In this document: positions 20,389 through 37,695 of the stretch, piece after piece
Layout of the letters: the number at the start of each line of letters is the position of its first letter
How positions within the stretch are numbered: position 1 is the first letter of the stretch
Assembly: GCA_016930515.1 (NCBI GenBank)
Contig: JAFGGO010000166.1
Coordinates: 1-37,897, forward strand
Reading direction: 5' to 3'
Length of the DNA stretch: 37,897 bases
Source of the DNA: Promethearchaeota archaeon
GTDB taxonomy: Archaea; Asgardarchaeota; Lokiarchaeia; Sigyniarchaeales; SOKP01
The notes under the pieces: model-generated
Databases searched by the model: none
Seen by the model: only the letters and a program-made list of their open reading frames with translations
What the model was told of the DNA's origin: nothing
Translations under genes and position numbers: made by a program

Positions 20389-23300
20389 TTGATGAAAAAT
20401 CTTCAAAGAATAAAGAAAAACAAATTTTTTAAATTAATACTTATTATTGTTGTTTTAAATTTTGCTCTTTTCTCTTTAATTTTGCCGCATAACGATTCAT
20501 TCAGCAATACGGTAATTATTCTGCAAAGCAATCCACCATATTCTCCGCAGAGTGCTTGTTATCATAAAATCCTCGATCCCTTCGAAATTGACGAGATGGG
20601 ACCAAACGATTGGAAATGGGCAAAGGATAGTGGATTCTGCTATGGTCAAGGAACCTTTGATTGTCCATATGTTATCGAGTGGGCAATTATAGACGCAAAT
20701 CAATCTGGTTCTTGTATCACGATAAAAAACTCGATTGCTCATTTTAAAATTCGAAATTGTAATTTTTCTGGCGTTAGAGAAAGATACTATCCATACGATT
20801 CTCGACGTTCCGCTTCAGCCATTGAACTGCAAAATGTTTCAAGCGGAAATATTGAATGCAATAATTTCAATAGCGATCCAACTTTAGAGTGGTGGCAAAA
20901 TGGTGTTGGAATTTCCATGAGTCAAGCTTGCGAAAATAATCGAATTTCTAAAAATAACATAATTGCTTATTATGACGGTATAGAAATTAAAAATTGCTCG
21001 GGAAATATAATCTGCTACAATAAAATAAGCTCTAATTGGAGAAATGGAATTTACATGTATGACTGCGATAACAACTTTTTAAAAAATAATGATATCTTGG
21101 TCACGGATATGTATAGAGATTATTTCGGTCATGGAATATATTTAGAAAATAGTGAAAATAATGCAATAATTGAAAACAATATAAATGAAAACGATGGATA
21201 CGGTTTGTTTCTTGAAAATAATTGTAATAATAATGTTATAAGTGAAAATCGTGTCAATAGCAATGTATTCGGAGGATTAAAGTTGAATTCAAATTGTCAT
21301 AAAAATATCATTTCGAACAACGAGTTTAACAATAATCATGGTGTGGGAATAACTTGTTTATATAGATGCACTTCCAATAAAATAATTGGAAACGAGGTAA
21401 GTAACAATCGTGAAGGATTTTATATGCGCGATAAAAGCAACAAAAACCTATTATCACATAATAACATTACGAATAACGAATACAGGGGGATTTACTGGTA
21501 TGATTCTGATAATATCAAATTATCTTCTAATTACATGATCAATAACGGCGAATACGCACTATATCTATTAGGCTGTGTTAACGCAACCGTGTCAGGAAAT
21601 GTGGCAAATAATAATGACAAACGTGGGATATATTTATGGAACTGCGATAATGTAAATGTATCGGGAAACACGGCGAGCAATAATGGCATGCACGGAATTT
21701 ATTTACTTGGCTGCGACAACTCAACCGTATCGGGAAATATGGCAAGCAATGATGCCCAATACGGAATAATGATATCAATGTGTTATAATGGCTTATTATA
21801 TGATAACAAAATGTTTGAATGTGGTTTGTGCGTTGGAGGAAGTATCGAGGTTTATTCTTCTTATAAAATAAACACTTCAAATAAAGTAAACGAGAAACCG
21901 ATTTATTATTATGTGAACAAGACCGGATTGAAATCCAATGATTTTTACAATGCGGGACAAATCATCTTGATTGAATGCAACGATAGTCAGATATCTCAAA
22001 TAAACGCATCTAATACATCTATAGGCATTACATTATGGGGTTGTTCTAATATTAAAATATTGGAGTGTATTTTAAATAAGAATCGATTTTATGGAATTAA
22101 AGTGCTTGATTCTTCTAGCAATATGATAATTGGAAATATAATGGAAGACAATCGTGAAGATGGAATTCAATTGCAAAATTCTCCTGGAAATATATTGAGA
22201 AATAATAAAATATGGAATGGTGGTTTAGAAATTTATCAATGGGAGCCGCTGGATAATTTACGATCGAATATAATTGATGTTTCCAATCAAGTAAACGAAA
22301 AACCATTATATTACTATGTTGATAAAATAAATTTGGAGCCCACTGCTTTTCAGAACGCTGGACAGATATTCTTGATTAATTGCAATAAATGTGAAGTGTC
22401 TGGAATAAATACATTTAATACATCAACAGGTATCTTTATGTCCGCTAGTTCCAATAATAATATTCACGACAATGCTTTAAATTATCATCGAATCTCTGGA
22501 TTAATCTTATACAATAGTTCAAATAATAATATTTCACACAATATTATCACAAATAATACGAAAACGGGAATAAATATGATATCTTATTCAAGCAATAATC
22601 TTGTGTTTAATAACATGATAAGTAATAATGGCGATAGAGGGGTTTATATTTATTATGAATGCTTGAATAATGTTATTCTCAGGAATTATATCATGCATAA
22701 TCAAAACGAGGGCATTTATTTGAGCAGTTGTAAAAGCAATTCGCTTTTACAAAATAAAATTGCGTATAACAAAAGGGATGGAATCCAAATTTCAGCAAAC
22801 GCCAATAATTTTTTAGAAAATAATGTTAGCTTTAACGGTAATAACGGAATGAATTTTGAATATGGTGAAAATAACAAATTCATTAGAAACACTGTAAATG
22901 ACAATATTTTGAGCGGAATTAGTTTATATTATAGCAATAATAATTATGTATCAGAAAACAAGATAAGCAACAATTCAAACGGGATCCAAATTTATTATCA
23001 ATCTGCTAATAATATTATTTCAAAAAACGATGTTTACTCAAATAAACATAGTGGAATTTACCTCTCGAACAATGCATGTAATACGACCGTTATTGGAAAT
23101 ACTATAAGATTTAATTCGCATTCTGGTATATATCTTACAAATGTGATTGATAGCGTTTTTTTAAAAAATACCGTTAATAACAATTCTGGATATGGATTCT
23201 ATGTAAATTGGTTTTCTATGAAGAATAATTTCTCTGATAACGAGGTAAAATATAATAATTTTGATGGAATCCTAATAGGCGATCAAAATAGTAATAATAA

Positions 23301-24132
23301 TACTTATTTAAGAAATATTATCATGGGTAATATGAGAAATGGAATATACATTAATGGTTATGCTTATTACAATCAAATTGAACAAAATATGATCTGTGAA
23401 AATCAAGAAAATGGCATTTTTATCTATAATGGAAGGGAAAATTCCATTTTAAGTAACACAATAAAAAAAAACAAGAATCATGGAATAATTATAATCGGTA
23501 ATAGCTACAAAAATGTTATGTTCCTCAATATATTCGTTGAAAACAGAGTTAATGCGGTCGATAACGGATCTTTCGATCAATGGAATGATGAACCCTTAGT
23601 AAATTTTTGGGATAATGGGAGTATGGGAAACTTTTGGGACGATTATGAAGGTATCGATAACAACGGAGATGGAATTGGAGACACGCCTTATCAAATCAAG
23701 GGGTCTGTAGGATCTCGAGACATGTGCCCATTAATGGATGAAAAATCAGAAATGGTCGTGGACTTTATCGTAAACGCAACCGATGTCTTTTCAGGTCAAT
23801 GGATACAATTTTCTTTTACAGGCTTTATAGTCGGTTCCAATATATCCTTTAATTGGGAATTCGGAGATGGAACCATTTCAAATGAAAAAAATCCAACACA
23901 TCAATTTATGACTCCAGGAAATTTTGTTGTGAAATTAAGTATAATTGACGCTTGGAATAAAGTATATTCCAAAGAGTCCATCGTTGTTGTCATTGAATTG
24001 TCCAGGTCTGATAGTTATAATAATGATACATTTAAAACAACCACTCCAAATGGTCTCATTGCCTTAATTGTGAGTTTGCTGGCAATGGTGGGCATTATTT
24101 CTACGGTTCAGATCGTAAATAAAAGAAAATAA
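20389..24132 (+). CDS. Large surface protein: NosD-like parallel beta-helix repeats + PKD domain + C-terminal TM anchor
   Basis: Dozens of GIxL...NxI..N repeats. Duplicated VNEKPxYYYV...NAGQIxLI block. GNFWDDYxGxDxNGDGIGDTPY motif, WEFGDG PKD motif, TM + NKRK. Confidence 0.88.
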   Translation: MMKNLQRIKKNKFFKLILIIVVLNFALFSLILPHNDSFSNTVIILQSNPPYSPQSACYHKILDPFEIDEMGPNDWKWAKDSGFCYGQGTFDCPYVIEWAIIDANQSGSCITIKNSIAHFKIRNCNFSGVRERYYPYDSRRSASAIELQNVSSGNIECNNFNSDPTLEWWQNGVGISMSQACENNRISKNNIIAYYDGIEIKNCSGNIICYNKISSNWRNGIYMYDCDNNFLKNNDILVTDMYRDYFGHGIYLENSENNAIIENNINENDGYGLFLENNCNNNVISENRVNSNVFGGLKLNSNCHKNIISNNEFNNNHGVGITCLYRCTSNKIIGNEVSNNREGFYMRDKSNKNLLSHNNITNNEYRGIYWYDSDNIKLSSNYMINNGEYALYLLGCVNATVSGNVANNNDKRGIYLWNCDNVNVSGNTASNNGMHGIYLLGCDNSTVSGNMASNDAQYGIMISMCYNGLLYDNKMFECGLCVGGSIEVYSSYKINTSNKVNEKPIYYYVNKTGLKSNDFYNAGQIILIECNDSQISQINASNTSIGITLWGCSNIKILECILNKNRFYGIKVLDSSSNMIIGNIMEDNREDGIQLQNSPGNILRNNKIWNGGLEIYQWEPLDNLRSNIIDVSNQVNEKPLYYYVDKINLEPTAFQNAGQIFLINCNKCEVSGINTFNTSTGIFMSASSNNNIHDNALNYHRISGLILYNSSNNNISHNIITNNTKTGINMISYSSNNLVFNNMISNNGDRGVYIYYECLNNVILRNYIMHNQNEGIYLSSCKSNSLLQNKIAYNKRDGIQISANANNFLENNVSFNGNNGMNFEYGENNKFIRNTVNDNILSGISLYYSNNNYVSENKISNNSNGIQIYYQSANNIISKNDVYSNKHSGIYLSNNACNTTVIGNTIRFNSHSGIYLTNVIDSVFLKNTVNNNSGYGFYVNWFSMKNNFSDNEVKYNNFDGILIGDQNSNNNTYLRNIIMGNMRNGIYINGYAYYNQIEQNMICENQENGIFIYNGRENSILSNTIKKNKNHGIIIIGNSYKNVMFLNIFVENRVNAVDNGSFDQWNDEPLVNFWDNGSMGNFWDDYEGIDNNGDGIGDTPYQIKGSVGSRDMCPLMDEKSEMVVDFIVNATDVFSGQWIQFSFTGFIVGSNISFNWEFGDGTISNEKNPTHQFMTPGNFVVKLSIIDAWNKVYSKESIVVVIELSRSDSYNNDTFKTTTPNGLIALIVSLLAMVGIISTVQIVNKRK

Positions 24133-24331
24133 ATATTCTCCTTTACATTCTACCATTATTTTTTTAATACTGCACTTTTTCACCATATCACTTTATAAAG
24201 AAAAAGTTAATAAAGTAAAGTAAGAATTCAATTCAATTATCAAGATTAATTCAAAATTCTCTATGATTAGTTTAAATAAAGCTGATAATTGAGTTAATTA
24301 TACAATCTACTAAAAGAAGTGAATTTTTCAA

Positions 24332-26545
24332 ATGAAAAACAGTCTAGGCACAAGCAACAGAGTACTAGAGATCAAAATAGCTTTTAGATCTCTTTTAAAA
24401 AGACCTATTAGGAGCATATTTACAATCTTATCGGTTGTTCTTGGAGTTAGCATTTTTTTCGCCGTTAACATTGCAATGGACTCAATTGAACAATCAATTA
24501 TCGTCCATTTAGATGAAGAACTATTTGGTTATGTGAATCAATGGATTTATTTGTTGAAGGGCGTTTTTACGATGCTATCAACAATGTCGTTATTTATTTG
24601 CGTGATTATCATAAAAAATTTGATGGAGATGACGAAAGAAGACCAATTATACGAGTTAGGCTTACTAAGAACGGTTGGATGCTCGAAGCGCGGGATTTTT
24701 ATGGTTTTTTTCTATCAAGTAATGATTATTTCCGTTGTAGGCATGATTTTAGGGCTCTTAACTGGTTACCTGATGTCTTTCTTATTGCTCGATCCATTTA
24801 AAGAAATGCTTAGCTCCTTTGCCTCCATTACAACGGAATACGAAATTCAGTTACATATTAGCGTACAGACCGTAATTATAGGAACTCTAGCGGGTCTCCT
24901 TGTCCCTCTCATATTTGGTACGATACCTGCTATTGCGGCAGGAAGGTCTCAAATAATAGCCACCCTCAATTCCAAAGTTAACGATAAAAGCAAGATATCA
25001 AAGTCGCTCAAATTTATAGCTTTTCAAGTCATCCTTTCTTTAATTTTAATAGGATTGGGGATCTACTTGATACTCTTTAGTTTTAATAGTTTATTATCGT
25101 TTCAAATTAATCCCACCAACGAAGCCAATATTGCTGTGATATTTATCCTGATATCCTCTTTGATTTTCATTTTAGGATGCACTACATTGGGAGCATTGAT
25201 TCTTCCATATTTAACACTAGCGCTTTCTTACATTTTTAAACCTTTAATCGGAAAGATGAGAGTTATCAGCTATAGAAATCTAATTAGAAATTCGCGAAGG
25301 ACAAAGAATACATTCTTGATGATTACCATCAGCATTTCGTTTCTTATAGCCGTAAATATTGCAATTCATTCCATCAAAGCGGGAATCGTCCCAGGTGCTC
25401 GCATGCGGTTTGGTGGCGATATTATTCTTTCAAATGGAAATTGGACTCACCACCAATCGACCATTCCAATCGATACAGCCGAGTTAATAGCTGAAATTGA
25501 TGATGTGGAAGAGGTTTGTGCGTATAAAAACTCTCTTTCTTGGAATGGTTTTACAATGTGTGATGGATTTGGAATCAATTACCAAAAAGAACGTTTTGGA
25601 TTGTTAGTCATCAACACGAGTAGTTACACAAAGATGCATTCGTCTTCGATATATTCATATCAGGATTCGAAAAACTTTTTTGATTTCATCCATCAACTAG
25701 ATGATATTGGATCGGTGATTTTACAAGATGGGCTTTTAGAAACTATCGGAAAAAAGAAGGGAGATCTAATAAACGTGACTACAGCATATACAAACGATAT
25801 TTTTCCTACAATTAGCTCAAACTTGGAAGTCGTTGGAGTGTTTAATATCCTCCCTGCTGTATGGAGCAGTTGGTATCAATACGAGATCGAACATTATACT
25901 GCGATAATTTCTTGGAAAACATATTTCGCTCTGACGGGATCAAATTACAGCACATCAACCGGTAATTTTTGGGTACAATGCGACGATCCTTATAATGCAG
26001 ATATAGTTAAAAACGACATCAAGAATTTATATCAAGCATTAGGTCCCCCATGGAATAGCCCTTACATCGATTTTAGAAACCCTTGGATAGTAACGACCAT
26101 ATCGGAAGACATCTCGATAACTCGTGAAATCGTAAATGTTGTACTCATTATAATCATATCCATCTTATTGATGGCGTTAGTGGTTTCAATGTTAGGGTTT
26201 CTCATATCAATGGAGATGAGCGTAAATAAGAGAAGATCAGAATTAGGGATATTAAGATCCATTGGTTTTTCTAAAAAGCAAATAATTCGAATGATATTTG
26301 GTGAAACGGCTATAATTACTATAGCGTCTCTCATTGCAGGTATTTTAATTGGTTTGATAACGGGTTTCCTTATTTCAAGGGTTCCGTTCTTGGCATATTT
26401 ACCCTTGATTTTTACGATAAATTGGATTGATATCGCATTATTAACAATTATTACCGCTTTTTTAGGAATTGTGGCTTCTATTATTCCAGCCTTCAAGACA
26501 ACAAAATTAAATGTAATGGAATCAATTAATAAAAGGAGGGTATAA
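24332..26545 (+). CDS. ABC exporter permease (FtsX/MacB-like, duplicated)
   Basis: ELGLLRTVG and ELGILRSIG, RNLIRNSRRT, IIPA motifs. Confidence 0.88.
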   Translation: MKNSLGTSNRVLEIKIAFRSLLKRPIRSIFTILSVVLGVSIFFAVNIAMDSIEQSIIVHLDEELFGYVNQWIYLLKGVFTMLSTMSLFICVIIIKNLMEMTKEDQLYELGLLRTVGCSKRGIFMVFFYQVMIISVVGMILGLLTGYLMSFLLLDPFKEMLSSFASITTEYEIQLHISVQTVIIGTLAGLLVPLIFGTIPAIAAGRSQIIATLNSKVNDKSKISKSLKFIAFQVILSLILIGLGIYLILFSFNSLLSFQINPTNEANIAVIFILISSLIFILGCTTLGALILPYLTLALSYIFKPLIGKMRVISYRNLIRNSRRTKNTFLMITISISFLIAVNIAIHSIKAGIVPGARMRFGGDIILSNGNWTHHQSTIPIDTAELIAEIDDVEEVCAYKNSLSWNGFTMCDGFGINYQKERFGLLVINTSSYTKMHSSSIYSYQDSKNFFDFIHQLDDIGSVILQDGLLETIGKKKGDLINVTTAYTNDIFPTISSNLEVVGVFNILPAVWSSWYQYEIEHYTAIISWKTYFALTGSNYSTSTGNFWVQCDDPYNADIVKNDIKNLYQALGPPWNSPYIDFRNPWIVTTISEDISITREIVNVVLIIIISILLMALVVSMLGFLISMEMSVNKRRSELGILRSIGFSKKQIIRMIFGETAIITIASLIAGILIGLITGFLISRVPFLAYLPLIFTINWIDIALLTIITAFLGIVASIIPAFKTTKLNVMESINKRRV

Positions 26546-26552
26546 GAAAAAA

Positions 26553-27245
26553 ATGAAAGAACTAACTATTAAAAAGAACGAAATTCTTGTTTTAAAAGAC
26601 ATTTACAAGACATACAATCTTGGAAAAACTAATGTAAACGCCTTGAACGGAATTTCATTATCGATAAAGAAAGGCGAGTTCGTATCAATCATGGGTCCAT
26701 CTGGATCGGGGAAAACCACGTTATTAAATATAATGGGATCGCTGGATCACCCCACGAATGGCAAGGTTTATGTCAACGGTAAAGATACATCAAAGATGGA
26801 CGACTCCGAATTGACACGGTTAAGGCGACATGAAATTGGATTCATATTTCAATTTTTTAACCTCATTCCTGTTCTTACAAGCTATGAAAACATTGAACTT
26901 CCCTTAATAGTTATAGGAATGGAAAAAGATCAGAGAAAGAAACGAGTATTAGAATTATTAGAAAGAATGGAAATAGAACATCGAGCAGGGCATAAACCTG
27001 ACGAACTTTCTGGAGGAGAAAGACAAAGAGTCGCCATAGCTCGAGCTCTTGCAAATCGCCCAAGTATTATTTTAGCCGATGAAATTACTGGAGATCTTGA
27101 CTCTAAAACGGGAGAAAAAATCATCGATTTGATTATCGAATTAAATCGTTCTGAAAATCAATCTTTCGTCATAATTACGCACGATCTTAAAGTTGCTGAA
27201 AGCACTTCGCTCATATATAATATTGAAGATGGAAAATTAATTTAA
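26553..27245 (+). CDS. ABC ATP-binding protein (LolD/MacB-type)
   Basis: [31 protein letters not shown] motifs. Confidence 0.95.
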
Positions 27246-28329: not shown

Positions 28330-28533
28330 GTGATTTACATTTCAAAAATAGATCAAATCGTGAAGGAATTGACAAAATTTCCGGATAATGTTTTGGACGA
28401 AATTTTTGATTACATTCTATTTTTAAAGGGAAAACTAGTCCGTGGTAGCCTGGAAATGGCAATATTGAGCGAATCGAGCTTGGAAAAAGATTGGACCCGC
28501 CCTGAAGAGGACGAAGCATGGCACGATTTATAA
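28330..28533 (+). CDS. Antitoxin (DUF2281-like)
   Basis: PDNVLDEIFDYILFLK...SESSLEKDWTRPEEDEAWHDL. Overlaps the toxin start. Exact start uncertain. Confidence 0.75.
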   Translation: MIYISKIDQIVKELTKFPDNVLDEIFDYILFLKGKLVRGSLEMAILSESSLEKDWTRPEEDEAWHDL

Positions 28534-28850
28534 AGGGCGACGTGGTCGTCGTAACCTTTCCTTTTTCCGATCTTTCCAACGCGAAGCGTCGACCTGCGCT
28601 TGTGATTGCGAATTTGATTGGAAACGACCTCATTTTATGCCAAATTACAAGTAAGGATGTCAGCGATACATACGCTATTGCTTTAAATGAAACCGATTTT
28701 AAGACTGGTTCCTTGAATAAACCGAGTAACATTAGGCCGAATAGGATTTTTACGGCAGATAGTCGAATTATTCTCTATCAAGTAGGTAAGGTACTGGATG
28801 CTAAAATAAAGGAGGTAACTGGAAAGATAATTCAAATCGTACAAGCTTGA
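28518..28850 (+). CDS. PemK/MazF family endoribonuclease toxin
   Basis: KGDVVVVTFPFSDLSNAKRRPALVI...LCQITS...SNIRPNRIFT. Confidence 0.9.
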   Translation: MARFIKGDVVVVTFPFSDLSNAKRRPALVIANLIGNDLILCQITSKDVSDTYAIALNETDFKTGSLNKPSNIRPNRIFTADSRIILYQVGKVLDAKIKEVTGKIIQIVQA

Positions 28851-29810: not shown

Positions 29811-30052
29811 CCTTGAGCCCCGTGTTCTGCCGTTCTTTCAGGATGATCTACGAATAAGTGGCGATCCAAGCGGGATAGGTCGTGTAAATGGTTGCTCCTA
29901 TGTTGGCTTGCGTGTTTTCGATGCCAACAAAATAGACGATGTTCGAAAGGCCCCATGCGCACGAGCTTCCCAAGAGCAAGAGCGCCCAATTGTTTTTTAT
30001 CATTGGAAACACGCCCTTCAAGTCCTTCATGAACAGTAATACGACGAGCAAA
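29808..30052 (-). pseudogene. EamA/DMT transporter internal fragment
   Basis: LLVVLLFMKDLKGVFPMIKNNWALLLLGSSCAWGLSNIVYFVGIENTQANIGATIYTTYPAWIATYS*IILKERQN matches about aa 55-135 of the intact copy. Confidence 0.85.
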
Positions 30053-30433
30053 GAGCTATTACTATACGGCTTGAACATCAAGACCCTGCCCGAATCCATC
30101 GATAACATGAAATCGCTCAAGATACTCTATTTAAACGACAACTACCTCTTGAATTCGCTTCCCGAGTCTATTAGTAAGTTAACATCGCTCCGAGAATTAA
30201 ATGTAGCAAATAATCAACTTGAATTTCTCCCAGAATCGGTAGGTGAACTTATATGGCTCGAAACATTAGATTTACGCAATAATCACTTAACAACACTCCC
30301 TGAGCCCTTACTTGATATGGATTTATTACAGGAAATAACAATTGAAGGAAACAAATTTAATTCCAATGGAGAACGTGTTTTACTGCAGTTACAAAAGAAT
30401 GGAGTTAGGGGTTATTGGAAACAATTTCATTGA
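30050..30433 (+). pseudogene. 5'-truncated LRR gene (C-terminal part), fused to antisense EamA sequence in ORF 29939-30433
   Basis: LPESIDNMKSLKILYLNDN, LPESISKLTSLRELNVANNQLEFLPESV repeats start abruptly at about 30050. Confidence 0.75.
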
Positions 30434-30886: not shown

Positions 30887-32818
30887 ATGATATGTGTTAT
30901 CAAGCAGGTCAAGAAAAAGAAAACCCTAATAAGTCTCCTCGTGATTATAATGGGATTGTTGTTTATTTCAACGAGTAAAAATTATCTGTCCACATGCAAT
31001 TTAATGCAAGAGGAGAATTTTTCAACCAAGATAATTACAGCTAATCCACCAAGCGTGAATATCACAAACATACACGAGGGTGACCAGTTTGAAGCGCCAT
31101 ATCCCGTCATAATTAACGTGACTATCGAAGACGACGATACGAGCGTTTCTGAAGCGAAAGCGTTAATAAATAGCCCTTCAATGTCGCTAAACTTTACCAT
31201 GGAAGAAAGCATGGGAACATGGTCTGCCTCGTGGGACAACATCAGCAAATACGAATTAGGAACATATACAATCACCATCTGGGCCTCTGACGAAAACGAT
31301 GAGATAAACCAAACCCAGTCTGTCAATATCGAACTAATTGACACGACTAACCCGTATTCAAACGACCTGACTCTTGAGGAACCGTTTAGAACTTTTTCTT
31401 ATGATCTTGACTGGATTCTTTACGATAATTACGAAGCAGGAGGTGAATATAGAGTTTGGTGTAGCGATTTCCAGGGAAGCACCTCAATGGTAAGAGATTG
31501 GACGCCTTGGTCAAATGGAACTAATTTAAGGGTCGAAATTGACACAGCAATCCCTGGAATTTTCAATTACTCGATTGAATATCGCGACGGTGCGAATTTA
31601 TACGGAATATCAGATTCAGTCATCGTTAACGTTTCTGAATACATTTATCTTTCTTCTGATTATAATCCCACTATAATCGATCTCAGCACGGAGTCGGGAA
31701 TCTCACTAATAGTTAACGTGAGTTCAGACGCAGTCCTGAAAATAGACGAACAATCCGATCCTTTTTCACACATAAGTAAAGTTAATAACGGTGATAATTT
31801 CGTACGATACTATCATATTAGGATATTTAATTGGACTCGCGAAGAAACCAGCGAAATGCTCGAAAGTGCTGTCGTGAGGTTTTATTACGAACCAAATCAA
31901 ATAAAAATGCTCGATAATTTGCGAGTCTATCGTTTTGATGGGATCGACGATATGTGGACAAATATCGACTACGAAATAAATATTGCCGGTAATTACGTGG
32001 AATTCACGACAACCGATTTTCCATATTTTGCCTTTTTCGAACTCGAAGAAACGAGCGTGGGAATCAACCCTTTCGGTTCAATTGATCCATTTTCATTTTT
32101 AATCGTTGTCTTATTAAGCACGGTAGGAATATCAGCAGTATCGAGTTATGTGATTATTTCGAGAAAAAACAAGAAAAAAGGGACCACGAGCGATCTCAAG
32201 CGAAAAAAGTATTTAAAATCCACGCAAAGCCAAATCCTCAAGGCAGCAACCACGATCAAAAAGAAAAAAGTTAGTGCAATAAAAGCACCCTTGAAGGAAC
32301 CAAGTTTAACTGAAGTTAAAACAACAACTAAGGAAGTAATCGTCCAAGAAAGAGCAGATATTTGCCAAGTGCATCGCGGTCCCATAAAAGGACTTATCTT
32401 TTCTTGTCCCAAGTGTAGTTGCAAATATTGCGTCGAATGTGCATTGAACTTGGAAGAAAAAAACGAGGGGTGTTGGTCCTGCAACGAGCCTCTGGAAGTA
32501 AAAAAGAGCCTCCCCATATTAAAAGAGGTTCCACGTGGAGAGCTAAGCGTTCAGGACGTCTTAAACGCAAGCATTGACGATACCATTCCAAAAAAGGCGA
32601 GCTTTATAGATATATTACCTACCATAGAATCGTCTCTCACCGTTGTTTCAAAGGATTTCCTTGAAAGGATTGACCAAATACCTTGGCGAGACGATCTCGA
32701 AAAGGAAAGCTTTATCAAGGAGATGCTCTCTTATACCCCAGAAGAGCAAGAAGACTTTATTAACGAAATGCTAGGAGATACACTAGATTTAACTCAAGGA
32801 CGCGAGACGGGTGAATAA
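30887..32818 (+). CDS. Single-pass receptor-like protein: signal/TM, Ig-like ectodomains, TM, basic linker, RING-like Zn finger, acidic helical tail
   Basis: GTYTITIWASD and GIFNYSIEYRD Ig-like strands. TM FLIVVLLSTVGISAVSSYVII. C-x2-H-x10-C-x2-C-x4-C-x2-C-x10-C-x2-C finger. Confidence 0.75.
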   Translation: MICVIKQVKKKKTLISLLVIIMGLLFISTSKNYLSTCNLMQEENFSTKIITANPPSVNITNIHEGDQFEAPYPVIINVTIEDDDTSVSEAKALINSPSMSLNFTMEESMGTWSASWDNISKYELGTYTITIWASDENDEINQTQSVNIELIDTTNPYSNDLTLEEPFRTFSYDLDWILYDNYEAGGEYRVWCSDFQGSTSMVRDWTPWSNGTNLRVEIDTAIPGIFNYSIEYRDGANLYGISDSVIVNVSEYIYLSSDYNPTIIDLSTESGISLIVNVSSDAVLKIDEQSDPFSHISKVNNGDNFVRYYHIRIFNWTREETSEMLESAVVRFYYEPNQIKMLDNLRVYRFDGIDDMWTNIDYEINIAGNYVEFTTTDFPYFAFFELEETSVGINPFGSIDPFSFLIVVLLSTVGISAVSSYVIISRKNKKKGTTSDLKRKKYLKSTQSQILKAATTIKKKKVSAIKAPLKEPSLTEVKTTTKEVIVQERADICQVHRGPIKGLIFSCPKCSCKYCVECALNLEEKNEGCWSCNEPLEVKKSLPILKEVPRGELSVQDVLNASIDDTIPKKASFIDILPTIESSLTVVSKDFLERIDQIPWRDDLEKESFIKEMLSYTPEEQEDFINEMLGDTLDLTQGRETGE

Positions 32819-32823
32819 CGAGA

Positions 32824-33480
32824 TTGTCGAAGGTGATTCTTGACCAGGAGCAATTTGTTTACGAAATCGTTCGAGATTACGTGAATAACAATAGGGCGTT
32901 TGAAATTAGAAAAATCTTGCCAATCGCAATGTCGCAATTCGCCAAGAATTCGATCGATATTAACCAAAACGGAATTGAGAAAATTCTTCTTGCGCTTGTC
33001 AAAAAAAGGCTCATTGTTGAGGGATCAACCTTAATAAGAAGCGAAATTTTAGAAAACGAAACTCGCCAAGAGATTTATAGCTATATCTGCGATAATCCAG
33101 GAAAATACATTACTCAATTAGAAAACGAGCTAGATTTAGGCCGACACTCGGTTGTTTGGCACCTTAAAACCTTGCTTAATTTTAATTTTATCGAAAAACA
33201 GGAGTTCGATAACCACGAGTTGTATTACAAGTCGGGTCTTGATTTTTCGTTTGTGAAGATCAATTATTTAACCTTTAAAAATGGAAAGATCTTGAATTAT
33301 CTCAGAGAAAACAACATCGGTCTCTCAAAAACTCGATTATCGAGAGACCTTAACATGAGCATGACCACAATGGACAAGAACCTCAAATATTTGATTGAAA
33401 ACGACATTGTTCGTATGGAATATATTGATAATACTTACCTTTATTTCTTGAACAACAAGACTTTTTCGGACAAGAATTAA
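32824..33480 (+). CDS. Double winged-helix transcriptional regulator (ArsR-like HTH)
   Basis: NETRQEIYSYICDNPG...LENELDLGRHSVVWHLKTL and KILNYLREN..GLSKTRLSRDLNMSMTTMDKNLKYL. 5 bp after the receptor stop, with a GGTGA RBS. Confidence 0.85.
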   Translation: MSKVILDQEQFVYEIVRDYVNNNRAFEIRKILPIAMSQFAKNSIDINQNGIEKILLALVKKRLIVEGSTLIRSEILENETRQEIYSYICDNPGKYITQLENELDLGRHSVVWHLKTLLNFNFIEKQEFDNHELYYKSGLDFSFVKINYLTFKNGKILNYLRENNIGLSKTRLSRDLNMSMTTMDKNLKYLIENDIVRMEYIDNTYLYFLNNKTFSDKN

Positions 33481-33625: not shown

Positions 33626-33772
33626 CATTTTTCATTATCACATCTTTTTATCGGATTGAACGAAATCACATCATTTAAAATGCGTTCTAGAAAGCATTGT
33701 TTCAATTCTTTACAAAACAAGGGTTTTGAGAGTTATATAGTCACGAAATCCGCCAAAGCCTTTTTTATAGGA
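33626..33772 (+). promoter_or_regulatory. Conserved upstream module, copy B
   Basis: Collinear with the reverse complement of 37729-37880. Ends in GTCACGAAATCCGCCAAAGCCTTTTTTATAGGA, about 60 bp before ATG 33830. Confidence 0.8.
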
Positions 33773-33829
33773 CTGTGGTCTTTGAATATTTACTATTACA
33801 TTAAATCATATAAAAATATAGGTGAAAAA

Positions 33830-34894
33830 ATGACAAGTAGAAAAGGAATGGCTTTATCTGTCATGACAATAATTATTGCCTGCTCAGGAACTGTTTTAGG
33901 TGCGTACGCTGTTTTATCTCTCGGAGTAATAGAAGGGGATTCAGGAGAAAGTGGCACTCAAGGAAACTATCCCGCCATTTATTGCGCCTCTGGGGCAGAG
34001 GTACAGGAAGCTATCGATTCAATTGGTTTAACTAAAGGATTAATCGTGATTACTCAAGATTTCTCAGTTAGCGAGCCAATTAATATTGATGGCGGAGGGG
34101 AGTACATCATCCAAGGAGCAGAAATGGCGTTAATAACAATAGATGGCGATTTTAGCGCATTTAACATATCCCGAGCATTATCGTGCGTTATCAAGCAATT
34201 AACCCTTGATGGGTCAGCAATAACTTCAGATGATGTCCCGATGATAAGTGTCAATGAACGCGATAACAATCCCGTGCACATTGAAAACATTCAATTTATT
34301 GGAGGCGTGAGTAATGACGAAGCTCGTGGTGTTTATGTTAATAGCGACCATGTTTGGGTAGAAGACTCCTCCTTTGCAAACCTTTATCAAGGAATATGCA
34401 GTGAGGATGCTTATTATTGTCACATCCTTGATAATTATTTCAACGAGATTAAATATAGCGCAATTTTTGGTACGGGTTTTAGCAGAAATGTTTTGCAAGG
34501 GAACATAATGTTTAATGTTAGACGTGGAATTCGCTTATATGACTACTCTAACAGCAATTCTATTATAAGTAACATAATTCGGAATTTTACTCAATATGGA
34601 GTGTTAATTTCGTATTGTTATTTGAATTCAATAGTTGGAAATTCGTTAAATAATGATTTGGGAAAACTTGAAAGCAATAAATACGGGATATATATTGGTA
34701 ATTCTGAAAAAACCGCGATTACTGGAAATACTGTTAATTATGTACAAGCGGACGCTCCCGGAACGGGCTATGGATTTTACATGCTAGATTCTGACTATAA
34801 TACCGTGGTTGGCAATGTCTTTACTCTTAATGATGTACCATTGTATAACGCTAGTTCTTATTACAATGAAATTGATCTCAATGTAATTTCTTAA
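33830..34894 (+). CDS. Membrane-anchored parallel beta-helix (NosD/pectin-lyase fold) protein
   Basis: Start moved to ATG 33830 after GGTGA. N-terminal TM, short GxxGxxGxxG linker, VQEAIDS motif, GIxL..N repeats. Confidence 0.8.
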   Translation: MTSRKGMALSVMTIIIACSGTVLGAYAVLSLGVIEGDSGESGTQGNYPAIYCASGAEVQEAIDSIGLTKGLIVITQDFSVSEPINIDGGGEYIIQGAEMALITIDGDFSAFNISRALSCVIKQLTLDGSAITSDDVPMISVNERDNNPVHIENIQFIGGVSNDEARGVYVNSDHVWVEDSSFANLYQGICSEDAYYCHILDNYFNEIKYSAIFGTGFSRNVLQGNIMFNVRRGIRLYDYSNSNSIISNIIRNFTQYGVLISYCYLNSIVGNSLNNDLGKLESNKYGIYIGNSEKTAITGNTVNYVQADAPGTGYGFYMLDSDYNTVVGNVFTLNDVPLYNASSYYNEIDLNVIS

Positions 34895-35609: not shown

Positions 35610-36215
35610 CTACAAAAATAAGTTATTTTTTCCTAATTTTTTTTTATTTTTTAGTAATTGGTTATTACTTAAATATAATCCTTCGAGTGATGATAAATTA
35701 CAAATGGATTGTGGAAGAGTTGTTAATTGATTATCCATTATTCTTAACTCTTTAAGAGAGGATAGGTTTCTAATTGATTCGGGAAGATTCGTTAATTTAT
35801 TCTCGTTCAAATCTAAATATTGTAGTGATTTTAAATTACCGAATGATTCAGGAAGTGATGTTAAATTATTCTTTTCTAAATTCAAATCATAGAGAGATGA
35901 TAAATAACAAAGAAATTCGGGAACAATAGTTAATTGATTATCTGTTAGATTTAAAATCTTGAGCGAATTAAGTTGCTTTAATGTCTCAGGAAATATCTCC
36001 AATTTATTTCTATCTAAATCGATTCTACAAAGTGATGTTAAGTTTCTTAAGGATTTTGGTAGGTTTGTTAATTTATTTTCGCATAAATATAATTCTAAAA
36101 GTGAGGTAATTTTACAGATGGATTCGGGAAGAACAGAGAACTTGTTCTTGCTTAAATCCAAGTATTCGAGCGCTGTGAGGTTAGAAAAGGAATGTGGAAG
36201 AGTTGTTAATTGATT
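35610..36215 (-). pseudogene. Internal LRR gene fragment (about 8 repeats of 23 aa)
   Basis: Repeats continue upstream of the listed start (NQLTTLPHSFSNLTALEYLDL) and stop at 36216. The 3' end decays into poly-A. Confidence 0.8.
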
Positions 36216-36315: not shown

Positions 36316-37695
36316 TTAAAGATATGTTCTATCCCCTAGCGAATAGAATGATTCCCAATACATTGGAAGATCGTCATACTTTGATAGCATTTCTTGAGGT
36401 GCCCACCTCCAAGCGTTTTCCGCTGACATATCGTTGTTGTCTCGAGCGTAAACAAACGCTTCTTTCATGGAAATCATGTGATTCTGCCACACATCCGGAC
36501 TATTTCCCGTGAATCGCCCTGGCTCGTATTCTGCCGAGAGATCCCTTAGCGAAGTGGGACTTAGGGGCTTTAGCGCGTCAATAAGGCGTTGAGAGAATCC
36601 TCTATCGTTCCATGTATGACCGTCCCTGTTATCCTGACTAGTCATGACTATTATTCTCTTTTCTGGATCGTCCGCCAAGTCGTTCAGATTAGGCCTGTCA
36701 TCAGAGTCGCCTGGAAGTGGTTCCAGACCAGTACTGGGGCCCAAAACGCTCCCACCTTGATCTTGCACGATCGATGGATCGAGAAATCCCCCTGAATGGC
36801 AGCAATCAATGCAAAACGTGAGTTGTGCGCAAGAGTACTCCGAAAATAGCGTATAAAGCTCGAAATCGTATAAATATCCTCCTTCCATGAGGGAAAATCC
36901 CGAGCACTGTATTCCAGGTCCACCATGCCCACTATAATAGAAAAAGACCGAATCGTCTGAAGTAACCACTTGGCTCAACATTGCGAGGGCCCAAATGACG
37001 GTGTTTCTGCTTGAAGGACCATCGATCATGTCGCGATGCGTTTCAATGGACTCCTCACTAATGTATTGCAACTGGTCATCCCTTATGAATTCACCAGTAG
37101 GTGGTCCTCCATCTCCGTAGAGCACGATGACGTTCTCCTTTTTATAACCATAGTCCTCTATTAACAAGTCGTACATGTCGCATAAATCAAGCCAAAACCA
37201 CGCTAAATCGGGATTTCCCCCTAATAGAACGGCGTATCTCTCGTTGGGATAGATAGATTCCTGCCATCCACCTTCAAAATTGGCGATTACCTCGTACCCG
37301 TCGTACATTCCATCAAAGTCCGTGTCTGGAAAAAGCGGGTTGGTGCAAAAGAAGTATTCTTGCTCGCCAACCAATCCGTCGCGATCGAAATCGCTAGCCC
37401 GAAACTCTGGATAGGTTAATGCAATGCTTGCCAAGTACCACCAATCAGAAATTTGGGGATACAAAAAAGGAATCTCCCACCACGTGAGGGAAGGGCTCAA
37501 TACGGGCTCGTCTTCTATAATTTCAGTCTGATTGGTTTGAATGGGCCTCATTGAAACGACCGTCCCGCACGCTATTGCCGCGATCAACACGGCGCTCACG
37601 AGAGCGATCTTTACTTTCTTGTTTTTTCGCAATAAATTCACTTTTAAATTCACCAAAACTCGGTCAACTCTTGGTTTTACAAAAAGCAAAACCAA
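36316..37695 (-). CDS. Secreted caspase/legumain-fold (clan CD, C13-like) cysteine peptidase with Ca-binding DxDxDG repeats
   Basis: RYAVLLGG, FFYYSGHGG (His), IDCCHSGGF (Cys), DFDRDG and DTDFDGMYDGYE, N-terminal TM. True start probably a GTG slightly downstream of 37695. Confidence 0.8.
   Translation of the reverse strand: MVLLFVKPRVDRVLVNLKVNLLRKNKKVKIALVSAVLIAAIACGTVVSMRPIQTNQTEIIEDEPVLSPSLTWWEIPFLYPQISDWWYLASIALTYPEFRASDFDRDGLVGEQEYFFCTNPLFPDTDFDGMYDGYEVIANFEGGWQESIYPNERYAVLLGGNPDLAWFWLDLCDMYDLLIEDYGYKKENVIVLYGDGGPPTGEFIRDDQLQYISEESIETHRDMIDGPSSRNTVIWALAMLSQVVTSDDSVFFYYSGHGGPGIQCSGFSLMEGGYLYDFELYTLFSEYSCAQLTFCIDCCHSGGFLDPSIVQDQGGSVLGPSTGLEPLPGDSDDRPNLNDLADDPEKRIIVMTSQDNRDGHTWNDRGFSQRLIDALKPLSPTSLRDLSAEYEPGRFTGNSPDVWQNHMISMKEAFVYARDNNDMSAENAWRWAPQEMLSKYDDLPMYWESFYSLGDRTYL

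Follow-up and report, generated by a model that had tools for sequence, protein, structure and literature searches.

A candidate two-polypeptide transmembrane transcription regulator with a RING-fold finger and a docking tail in a Promethearchaeota archaeon

The subject of this study is a pair of neighbouring genes in a 37,897-nucleotide stretch of DNA from a Promethearchaeota archaeon of the Lokiarchaeia (assembly GCA_016930515.1, contig JAFGGO010000166.1, positions 1 to 37,897; hereafter the window). Both genes lie on the forward strand, at 30887-33480: the first encodes a membrane receptor with a zinc finger and an acidic helical tail on its cytoplasmic side, and the second encodes a protein of three winged-helix (WH) domains, here called the regulator. 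Relatives of the two recur side by side, in some cases fused into one chain, and we think it probable that receptor and regulator together form a transmembrane transcription regulator of two polypeptides, the tail serving as the site at which the regulator docks at the membrane.

The receptor gene (30887..32818, +) is an open reading frame (ORF) whose 643-amino acid translation has an architecture common to its paralogs: in order, a signal anchor, an ectodomain, one transmembrane (TM) helix, a basic linker, the finger, and a helical tail, as in a type-I membrane protein. A hydropathy scan places the N-terminal hydrophobic signal or anchor at residues 12-30 (30920..30976, +), and the ectodomain that follows (residues 31-401) is rich in glycosylation sequons and includes an Ig-like domain at residues 55-131 (31049..31279, +) that matches Pfam Big_7 (E 1.2e-5, 26.3 bits against a cut-off of 24.1). 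Hydropathy and sequence put the TM helix at residues ~402-425 (32090..32161, +), ahead of a basic stop-transfer sequence, SRKNKKK directly after the helix; N-x-S/T sequons number 11 outside and 1 on the cytoplasmic side. The cytoplasmic part opens with a Lys-rich juxtamembrane linker of net charge +15 (residues 426-485; 32162..32341, +), continues with the finger (32363..32482, +), which is recognized from the paralog alignment, an AlphaFold2 (AF2) model, and structural matches, and ends in the putative docking tail domain, three acidic helices at residues 573-629 (32603..32773, +) delimited by its paralog family, AF2, complex prediction, and its adjacency or fusion to regulators. Residues 560-643 together have a net charge of -13.

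The receptor's stop codon, TAA at 32816-32818, is separated by 5 nt from the TTG start of the regulator at 32824, and a GGTGA lies 10 nt upstream of that TTG; the two are separate genes in different frames. The regulator gene (32824..33480, +), supported by its ORF, Pfam, and AF2, encodes 218 amino acids from the TTG, and a public gene call starts instead at M36. We take the longer form to be correct: residues 1-35 align with conserved sequence in 15 paralogs, four of them fused forms. A first-pass annotation, made from the sequence alone, had described an ectodomain, a single TM helix, a Lys-rich linker, and an acidic helical tail, with a transcription factor gene beginning 5 bp later, and the ORFs, hydropathy, and charge bear all of this out; the eight-ligand finger spacing that it gave, CQVH-x10-CPKC-x4-CVEC-x10-CWSC, is exact.

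Numbered in the receptor, the finger reads C493-x2-H496-x10-C507-x2-C510-x4-C515-x2-C518-x10-C529-x2-C532, with an additional, nonconserved cysteine at C512. Because these eight ligands are invariant in the 24 finger-bearing ORFs of the source genome, and ligand 2 alternates between His and Cys in more distant copies, the motif is not a chance one. An AF2 model of residues 480-643, built from a 45-row alignment, gives the finger a predicted local distance difference test score (pLDDT) of 95-97 and the tail 93-95, with a low-confidence linker between them, and shows in the finger a beta-beta-alpha core, with strands at 504-506 and 513-515 and a helix at 516-524 whose N-terminus carries the third ligand pair. 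In VIA structural comparison, the best match of the modelled finger is the RNF146 RING (Z 6.4, root-mean-square deviation [rmsd] 1.7 Å over 53 residues), and RING/U-box domains make up 46 of the top 50 rows, a homogeneous list that covers the whole domain, with Z values below 8 that count as middling and a comparison that rests on a predicted structure; TFIIH p44 (8ebs_E) is found at Z 4.7. Foldseek against the PDB with the finger-tail model gives weak E-values (0.04-0.25), the finger-only rows (~50 columns, rmsd 1.6-2.0 Å) being the RING/U-box domains of TRIM37 and Prp19, while the RINGs of RING1B, TRAF, MDM2, and TRIM21 appear with longer alignments and higher rmsd, and there are also long, poor alignments to spliceosome chains, mostly to the Prp19 U-box.

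In profile comparison, the finger profile against the PDB has only RING proteins at the top, at weak scores (E 0.02-0.1), among them RBBP6 (0.02), MDM4 (0.03), and p44 (1z60; 0.05), the last with all eight ligands aligned; the first-pass annotation had likened the spacing to the C4C4 RING variants of TFIIH p44 and CNOT4. Against Pfam, the finger falls below threshold for the p44/Ssl1 C1_4 family (PF07975; 13.6 bits against 28.9, E 0.081), and no other Pfam RING family matches the receptor at E up to 1. On its modelled structure, then, the finger is a RING-superfamily fold with p44-like spacing, in agreement with the cross-brace RING first proposed, and by score it belongs to no curated family. 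Its most conserved non-ligand residues are a V at C1+2, an L at C6+4, and a W at C7+1, which we take to be classical E2-contact positions of c-Cbl-type RINGs; the paralog alignment has no conserved basic 'linchpin' after the last Cys. A double zinc ribbon (DZR) would also be permitted by the spacing, and we rejected it: among Pfam matches at E up to 1 there is no DZR or other zinc-ribbon family, in the model a helix begins directly after the third ligand pair, and no ribbon is among the top structural rows. The DZR matches on one relative (P0003) are two separate ribbons upstream of its finger.

The source genome (4.0 Mb in 190 contigs, 94% complete) holds a family of such proteins: the cytoplasmic part of the receptor has 33 matches there, and six-frame ORFs searched with iterated local hidden Markov models separate three modules. 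The finger module, 52 amino acids long, occurs in the 24 ORFs mentioned above, nearly always at the extreme C-terminus of signal-ectodomain-TM proteins; the tail module, of ~55 amino acids and with the consensus L-T-x2-S-x-E-F-L-x-K-I-D ... E-K-x2-F-x2-E-M-L-x-L-x-P-x-E-R, occurs in 20; and the regulator module, with its three WH domains, is full length in 23. Ectodomains vary among the paralogs, being Ig/Big_7, PKD, right-handed beta-helix/NosD, or SBBP propeller repeats, or having no Pfam match. Four of the 20 tail ORFs (C27, C45, C98, and C172) are single chains of ectodomain, TM helix, tail, basic linker, and regulator. Among the 16 unfused ones, 14 directly adjoin a regulator gene (binomial P 1.7e-25, given 23 regulator genes among ~3,800), and the remaining two belong to a cluster on C157 that includes one regulator. 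The tail/regulator junctions are operon-like, with overlaps of 4 to 11 nt or gaps of 2 to ~50 nt. Over 16 cognate pairs, tail similarities are correlated with regulator similarities (matrix comparison, Mantel r 0.69, p 2e-4), so that the pair diversifies as a unit. The C157 cluster (C157:22269-31242, L018) has five finger-bearing genes around its regulator gene, three of them encoding finger and tail with short N-terminal anchors and no large ectodomain, and the regulator there has a 75-amino acid N-terminal extension. Elsewhere, two adjacent small soluble ORFs of 69 and 83 amino acids (C48:44154-44621, -) contain little beyond a divergent finger in which C-x2-C replaces C-x2-H.

The pairing extends beyond the source genome, to about 25 loci of other genomes. 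A regulator stands next to the tail gene at L026-29, L040-44, and L073, and adjoins it in all 12 further loci picked from tail matches across the family; the exception is one tail locus (L039) with no regulator within its flank. Finger-only loci from other genomes have no regulator. The recurrence of tail and winged helix-turn-helix (wHTH) gene pairs, which the first-pass annotation had put forward as a check, is thus evident from the adjacency counts in the source genome and in other genomes, and from the fusions. Taxonomically the tail is narrowly distributed, being present in 24 of 25 sampled genomes of the source family and in a single one of the 125 that were sampled across 26 further families of the phylum, and the finger is distributed somewhat more widely. 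Most genomes of the family have about two tail copies, one in a ubiquitin (Ub) operon and one in a ~540-amino acid protein of six TM helices and a tail, each with a regulator, and the tail is expanded in the source genus and one other genus. The named relatives are Promethearchaeota metagenome-assembled genomes, and word-index homology searches found few relatives; a related-locus search with a single protein returned one locus. In three of the loci from other genomes (L029 in G020:C70, L042 in G021:C38, and L087 in G162:C4), the receptor has two tandem tails, with one regulator gene downstream.

The modules are also recombined between the two polypeptides. A search of the regulator profile against 1.84 billion cluster representatives returned 134 clusters at E ≤ 1e-30, and the best 150, which we annotated locally, include free regulators of ~215-230 amino acids, forms with two TM helices and a regulator (2TM-regulator, at least 18 clusters, ~330-375 amino acids), ectodomain-TM-tail-regulator fusions (P0008, P0009, and P0011-13), a fusion of five TM helices, tail, and regulator (P0041), and three soluble regulator-finger fusions (P0019, P0038, and P0040). 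Two of the last (P0019 and P0038) are preceded on their own strand, at a distance of 20 nt, by a gene for a finger-less ectodomain-TM-tail receptor. Thus the gene pair of tail and regulator is kept, whereas the RING is found on the receptor in some cases, as in the window, and on the regulator in others. Among the genomic arguments for a single complex of finger, tail, and regulator, this placement on either partner is the strongest.

The first-pass annotation had counted two wHTH domains in the regulator, and on this point it was wrong: the AF2 model (pLDDT 95.8, predicted template modelling score 0.87) has an N-terminal WH-like domain followed by two canonical wHTH domains. WH1, the WH-like three-helix domain at residues 3-60 (32830..33003, +), is defined by AF2 and is part of the predicted docking surface. 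WH2 (residues 79-136; 33058..33231, +), supported by Pfam, VIA, the interface, and conservation, is ArsR/Phr-like; its best VIA match is Pyrococcus furiosus Phr (Z 11.0, rmsd 1.9 Å over 70 residues), and W112-H113 of its recognition helix are near-invariant. WH3 (residues 141-209; 33244..33450, +), supported by Pfam HTH_24, VIA, and charge, is MarR/IclR/ArsR-like: VIA matches it to these types at Z 10-10.7 and rmsd 1.1-1.7 Å, one MarR-type regulator reaching Z 10.7 with rmsd 1.7 Å over 65 residues, its recognition helix retains a T-x2-K-x-L signature, and its net charge is +4. WH3 is likely the DNA reader. The whole protein matches two Pfam families above their cut-offs, HTH_HVO_0163_N (38.1 bits against 31) and HTH_5 (27.1 against 22), and both Pfam and the fold place it among the ArsR/SmtB-type and HVO_0163-type wHTH proteins. 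We also considered and rejected an assignment to ESCRT-II, as neither PF04157 nor PF05871 matches at E up to 1 and the structural match to 3cuq_B is at an rmsd of 8.2 Å.

Complex prediction brings the two proteins together. The score for regulator plus tail is 0.73, and the highest among three controls is 0.46. Of 80 solved complexes 58 attained this mark, as did 2 of 110 mismatched pairs; at least 76% of contacts are common to the runs, and the partner has a pLDDT of 67 or more. The model thus favours tail-regulator binding without demonstrating it. On the tail side, the predicted interface comprises residues 582-589 and 598-629, including W600, F609, F624, M628, and L629, and on the regulator side it comprises helix 1 of WH1, the 62-70 linker, and the WH2 recognition helix (residues 106-116), which is its core; WH3 is left free. 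Regulator W112 and tail F609, both in the interface, are among the most conserved residues of their families. Searches for fold relatives of the tail yielded two low, unrelated helical rows in VIA, no usable match in an ESM Atlas feature search, and RING-type rows only in an Atlas shape search. Of the interpretation first offered for this locus, then, the RING fold, the tail-regulator interface (as a prediction above controls), and the recurrence of the pair stand, so that none of the three outcomes named there as refuting it is borne out, and the count of two wHTH domains does not. The ubiquitin part of that interpretation gains contextual support, from the occurrence of the RING on either partner and from the operon described next.

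A further link leads to the Ub system. The source genome encodes three E2-like genes above the Pfam cut-off, together with E1, JAB, and Ub-like genes. On contig C26 (L053:290-8377), a multi-TM protein with a C-terminal zinc finger is followed by JAB/MPN, E2, E1 (ThiF), and a Ub-like protein (Ubl), and divergent to these lie a regulator paralog and a TM-tail-Ubl fusion, then a second Ubl and a coiled-coil protein. In the fusion, the Ubl domain (PF00240, E 3.9e-6) stands where the receptors carry the RING. The nine-gene arrangement, regulator and TM-tail-Ubl included, is found in five further genomes (L066-L070), one of the source genus and two each of two other genera. The free Ubls end in ...AGKV and ...AGYF, not GG, and the fused Ubl has no Gly-Gly. 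The multi-TM protein (L053:290-1429, -; 379 amino acids), whose C-terminal finger runs C-x2-C ... C-x2-C ... H ... C-x2-C, has no Pfam match and no match to the receptor-finger profile, and is possibly the membrane E3 of the operon. For archaea, the reconstitution of an E1/E2/RING cascade, that of Caldiarchaeum, has been reported (Hennell James et al., 2017, cited in PMC9192718).

We propose that the receptor would expose a variable, adhesin- or lectin-like ectodomain, and that its tail would pack on WH1 and the WH2 recognition helix, holding the regulator at the membrane with WH3 free. What happens at the ectodomain may then alter how the regulator docks or how active it is, with transcription changing as a result, whether the regulator is released or acts while at the membrane, and the RING may link the complex to the lineage's ubiquitin-like system. 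In silico, the architecture, the RING fold, the recurrent pairing, the fusions, the predicted interface, and the operon link support this proposal, from which we infer DNA binding, dependence on a signal, the direction of regulation, and any ubiquitylation. Several points weigh against it. The evidence for binding is a model's confidence score, and conservation at the interface does not significantly exceed that of the remaining regulator residues (p 0.23), a neutral result. WH2 is acidic (-6), and the three-WH array taken whole resembles scaffolds that are not regulators (RPC34, ESCRT-II, ScpB, and UFL1-DDRGK1) about as well as it does any other protein. The 11-mers shared among the window's seven intergenic regions are AT-rich chance words, with no common operator to point to target genes such as the nearby beta-helix/LRR genes, whose control the first-pass annotation had proposed. 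Sixteen of the 24 RING-bearing ORFs have neither a tail nor a regulator, which indicates that the RING also serves a purpose in which the regulator takes no part. In the fused forms, finally, the tail may do no more than contribute to the structure of the regulator, in which case 'sequestration' would be a misnomer.

How the docked complex might work could differ from this outline in more than one way. The RING could be an active E3 that brings a charged E2 (E2~Ub or E2~Ubl) to the complex, with modification of the regulator or of the receptor tail causing release, degradation, or activation, much as eukaryotic membrane-tethered transcription factors are processed in a ubiquitin-dependent way. 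This would fit the RING/U-box fold with its homogeneous structural matches, the conserved V, L, and W at presumed E2-contact positions, the E1, E2-like, JAB, and Ub-like genes of the source genome, the tail/regulator module inside the Ub operon with a Ubl in place of the RING, and the occurrence of the RING with either partner. The missing basic linchpin and the sub-threshold Pfam RING models (best PF07975, at E 0.08) argue the other way; the RING of p44, the closest relative in spacing, is used mainly for protein-protein contact, and no RING-receptor gene stands beside an E2 or Ub gene in the source genome. We regard such a ubiquitin-driven switch as possible and somewhat unlikely. The tail could instead be a plain anchoring interface, the regulator being bound to the membrane permanently, as in ToxR or CadC, with nothing released and the RING serving as a dimerisation or clustering module; many RINGs dimerise. 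Covalent tail-regulator and 2TM-regulator fusions are common, which makes permanent tethering compatible with function, and the predicted complex leaves WH3 free; archaea have a wide range of transmembrane transcription regulators (TTRs), according to a survey of that class (PMC10269533). Against a constitutive anchor, the predicted docking covers the WH2 recognition helix and so would appear inhibitory if WH2 reads DNA, and gene fission has recurred exactly at the tail/regulator boundary (14 pairs), which suggests that the separability of the two is used. Such permanent anchoring seems to us rather unlikely.

The two remaining alternatives question the regulator or the pairing itself. The three-WH protein might be a tandem-WH adaptor of ESCRT-II, RPC34, or UFL1 type that couples the tails to ubiquitin- or ESCRT-type sorting. 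Whole-regulator Foldseek is led by RPC34, SelB, ESCRT-II Vps22/36, ScpB, and UFL1-DDRGK1 (E 8e-5 to 2e-3), a regulator paralog is conserved in the Ub operon, and the acidity of WH2 would suit an adaptor. These scaffold matches are loose, however, with TM-scores of 0.2-0.3 and rmsd above 9 Å, whereas the single domains match Phr, MarR, ArsR, and IclR at Z 10-11 and rmsd 1.1-2 Å. HTH_5 and HTH_HVO_0163_N are above cut-off, and up to E 1 neither EAP30 nor Vps25 is matched; the ESCRT-II genes that the genome does have (EAP30 and Vps25) lie away from the regulator on contig C85, and WH3 keeps its recognition-helix signature, so that we consider an adaptor improbable. That an unrelated surface protein merely happens to stand beside a generic ArsR-type regulator has in its favour only the general abundance of wHTH genes in archaea, and it is already refuted by the adjacency statistics, the fusions, the conservation across genera, and the correlated divergence; we give it practically no credence. 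A split regulator with a docking tail remains our preferred reading. Whether this Asgard family has, more broadly, a ubiquitin-linked transmembrane pathway, in which a RING or Ubl switches the docked regulator through E1, E2, and JAB, is a more speculative proposal that we hold to be doubtful.

Around the pair, the window contains other surface-protein genes. Downstream of the regulator lies a gene (33656-34894, +) for a membrane-anchored beta-helix/NosD protein, the ectodomain type of several receptor paralogs; its listed TTG start is probably too far upstream, as an internal Met precedes the hydrophobic segment. Further upstream, 20389-27245 (+) encodes a 1,247-amino acid beta-helix/NosD and PKD surface protein, then a MacB/FtsX-type permease (737 amino acids) and an ABC ATPase (230 amino acids). 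A MazF/PemK-type toxin gene (28518-28850, +; Pfam E 2.7e-11) is overlapped by a short upstream ORF (28330-28533, +) that is likely its antitoxin. Small leucine-rich-repeat proteins are encoded on either side of the locus (29939-30433, +, and 35610-36161, -), and a downstream gene (36316-37695, -) encodes a 459-amino acid protein with weak matches to legumain (C13) and caspase (C14) peptidases. Rfam and tRNA scans of the window gave no matches.

Little is understood of how archaea signal from surface to gene, and among archaea the Asgard group is the one most closely related, as far as is known, to eukaryotes. The system described here is modular and lineage-expanded, with a variable ectodomain, a TM helix, a RING-fold finger, a docking tail, and a three-WH regulator, its parts shuffled between two polypeptides. 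If the docking is real, it would be a new build of transmembrane transcription regulator, split and provided with a private docking domain. If the RING/Ubl link works in the cell, it would connect ubiquitin-type modification with archaeal receptor-to-gene signalling, which bears on the origins of eukaryotic ubiquitin signalling, and a ubiquitin-linked switch, if true, would give prokaryotes a counterpart of the receptor-E3-transcription factor signalling of eukaryotes. In size and solubility the system lends itself to direct biochemistry.

Eukaryotes have counterparts of several of these elements. The finger is nearly identical in ligand spacing to the C4C4 RING of TFIIH p44/Ssl1 (PF07975; PDB 1z60), from which it differs in its His at ligand 2, its membrane-receptor setting, and the lack of a vWA domain. 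The ectodomain-TM-RING E3 ligases RNF43/ZNRF3 and GRAIL/RNF128 share with the receptor its type-I topology, extracellular domain, single TM helix, and cytoplasmic RING-fold finger. In contrast to them, the receptor has C-H-C6 ligands with p44-like spacing, no Pfam RING match at threshold, and no PA domain, and it is predicted to be coupled to a docked regulator. Ubiquitin-dependent activation of membrane-tethered transcription factors is known in yeast Spt23/Mga2 and mammalian NRF1 (with HRD1), integral or dimer-tethered proteins of the endoplasmic reticulum that are freed by proteasome/Cdc48 processing. As in these pathways, a transcription factor at the membrane and a ubiquitin-ligase-type module would belong to one pathway here, with the difference that the predicted tether is a docking domain on a plasma-membrane receptor.

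In organization, there is a parallel in the co-transcribed pairs of a membrane anti-sigma factor with an extracytoplasmic function (ECF) or SigI-type sigma factor, such as RsgI-SigI of cellulolytic clostridia, which are multiplied per genome with varied carbohydrate-binding or adhesin-like ectodomains and in which a small cytoplasmic domain of a single-pass protein covers the DNA- or RNA polymerase-contact surface of the sigma factor. The receptor/regulator pairs are likewise multiplied, with varied ectodomains and a small cytoplasmic domain predicted to hold a transcription protein. They differ in having no sequence or fold kinship to these proteins, a wHTH partner instead of a sigma factor, the receptor gene first, and a RING or Ubl module, and they show no sign of regulated proteolysis.

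The class of TTRs, exemplified by ToxR, TcpP, and CadC, has been surveyed (Demey et al., 2023; PMC10269533), and ArnR and ArnR1 of Sulfolobus are reported to be archaeal membrane-bound regulators (Bischof et al., 2019, cited in PMC13286277). Like these, the window pair would couple an outside sensor without a kinase to a cytoplasmic domain of DNA-binding type. The definition given in the survey has TM and DNA-binding domains in one polypeptide; the window pair divides them between two, whereas the fused forms (C27, C45, C98, C172, and P0008-13) fall within that definition and the 2TM-regulator forms fit the class. The pair departs from TTRs in that sensor and DNA-binding-type part are split and joined by a dedicated docking domain, that the receptor has a RING-fold finger, and that a three-WH array replaces the OmpR/PhoB-type domain. 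In the literature that we searched, neither archaeal receptors with a RING tail, nor the tail domain, nor the regulator/TM-tail-Ubl pair in Asgard Ub operons is described. The predicted tail-regulator docking, the fusions, and the Ub-operon link are new here, and the system unites principles known separately elsewhere: those of the TTRs, of anti-sigma-like docking, and of TM-RING proteins.

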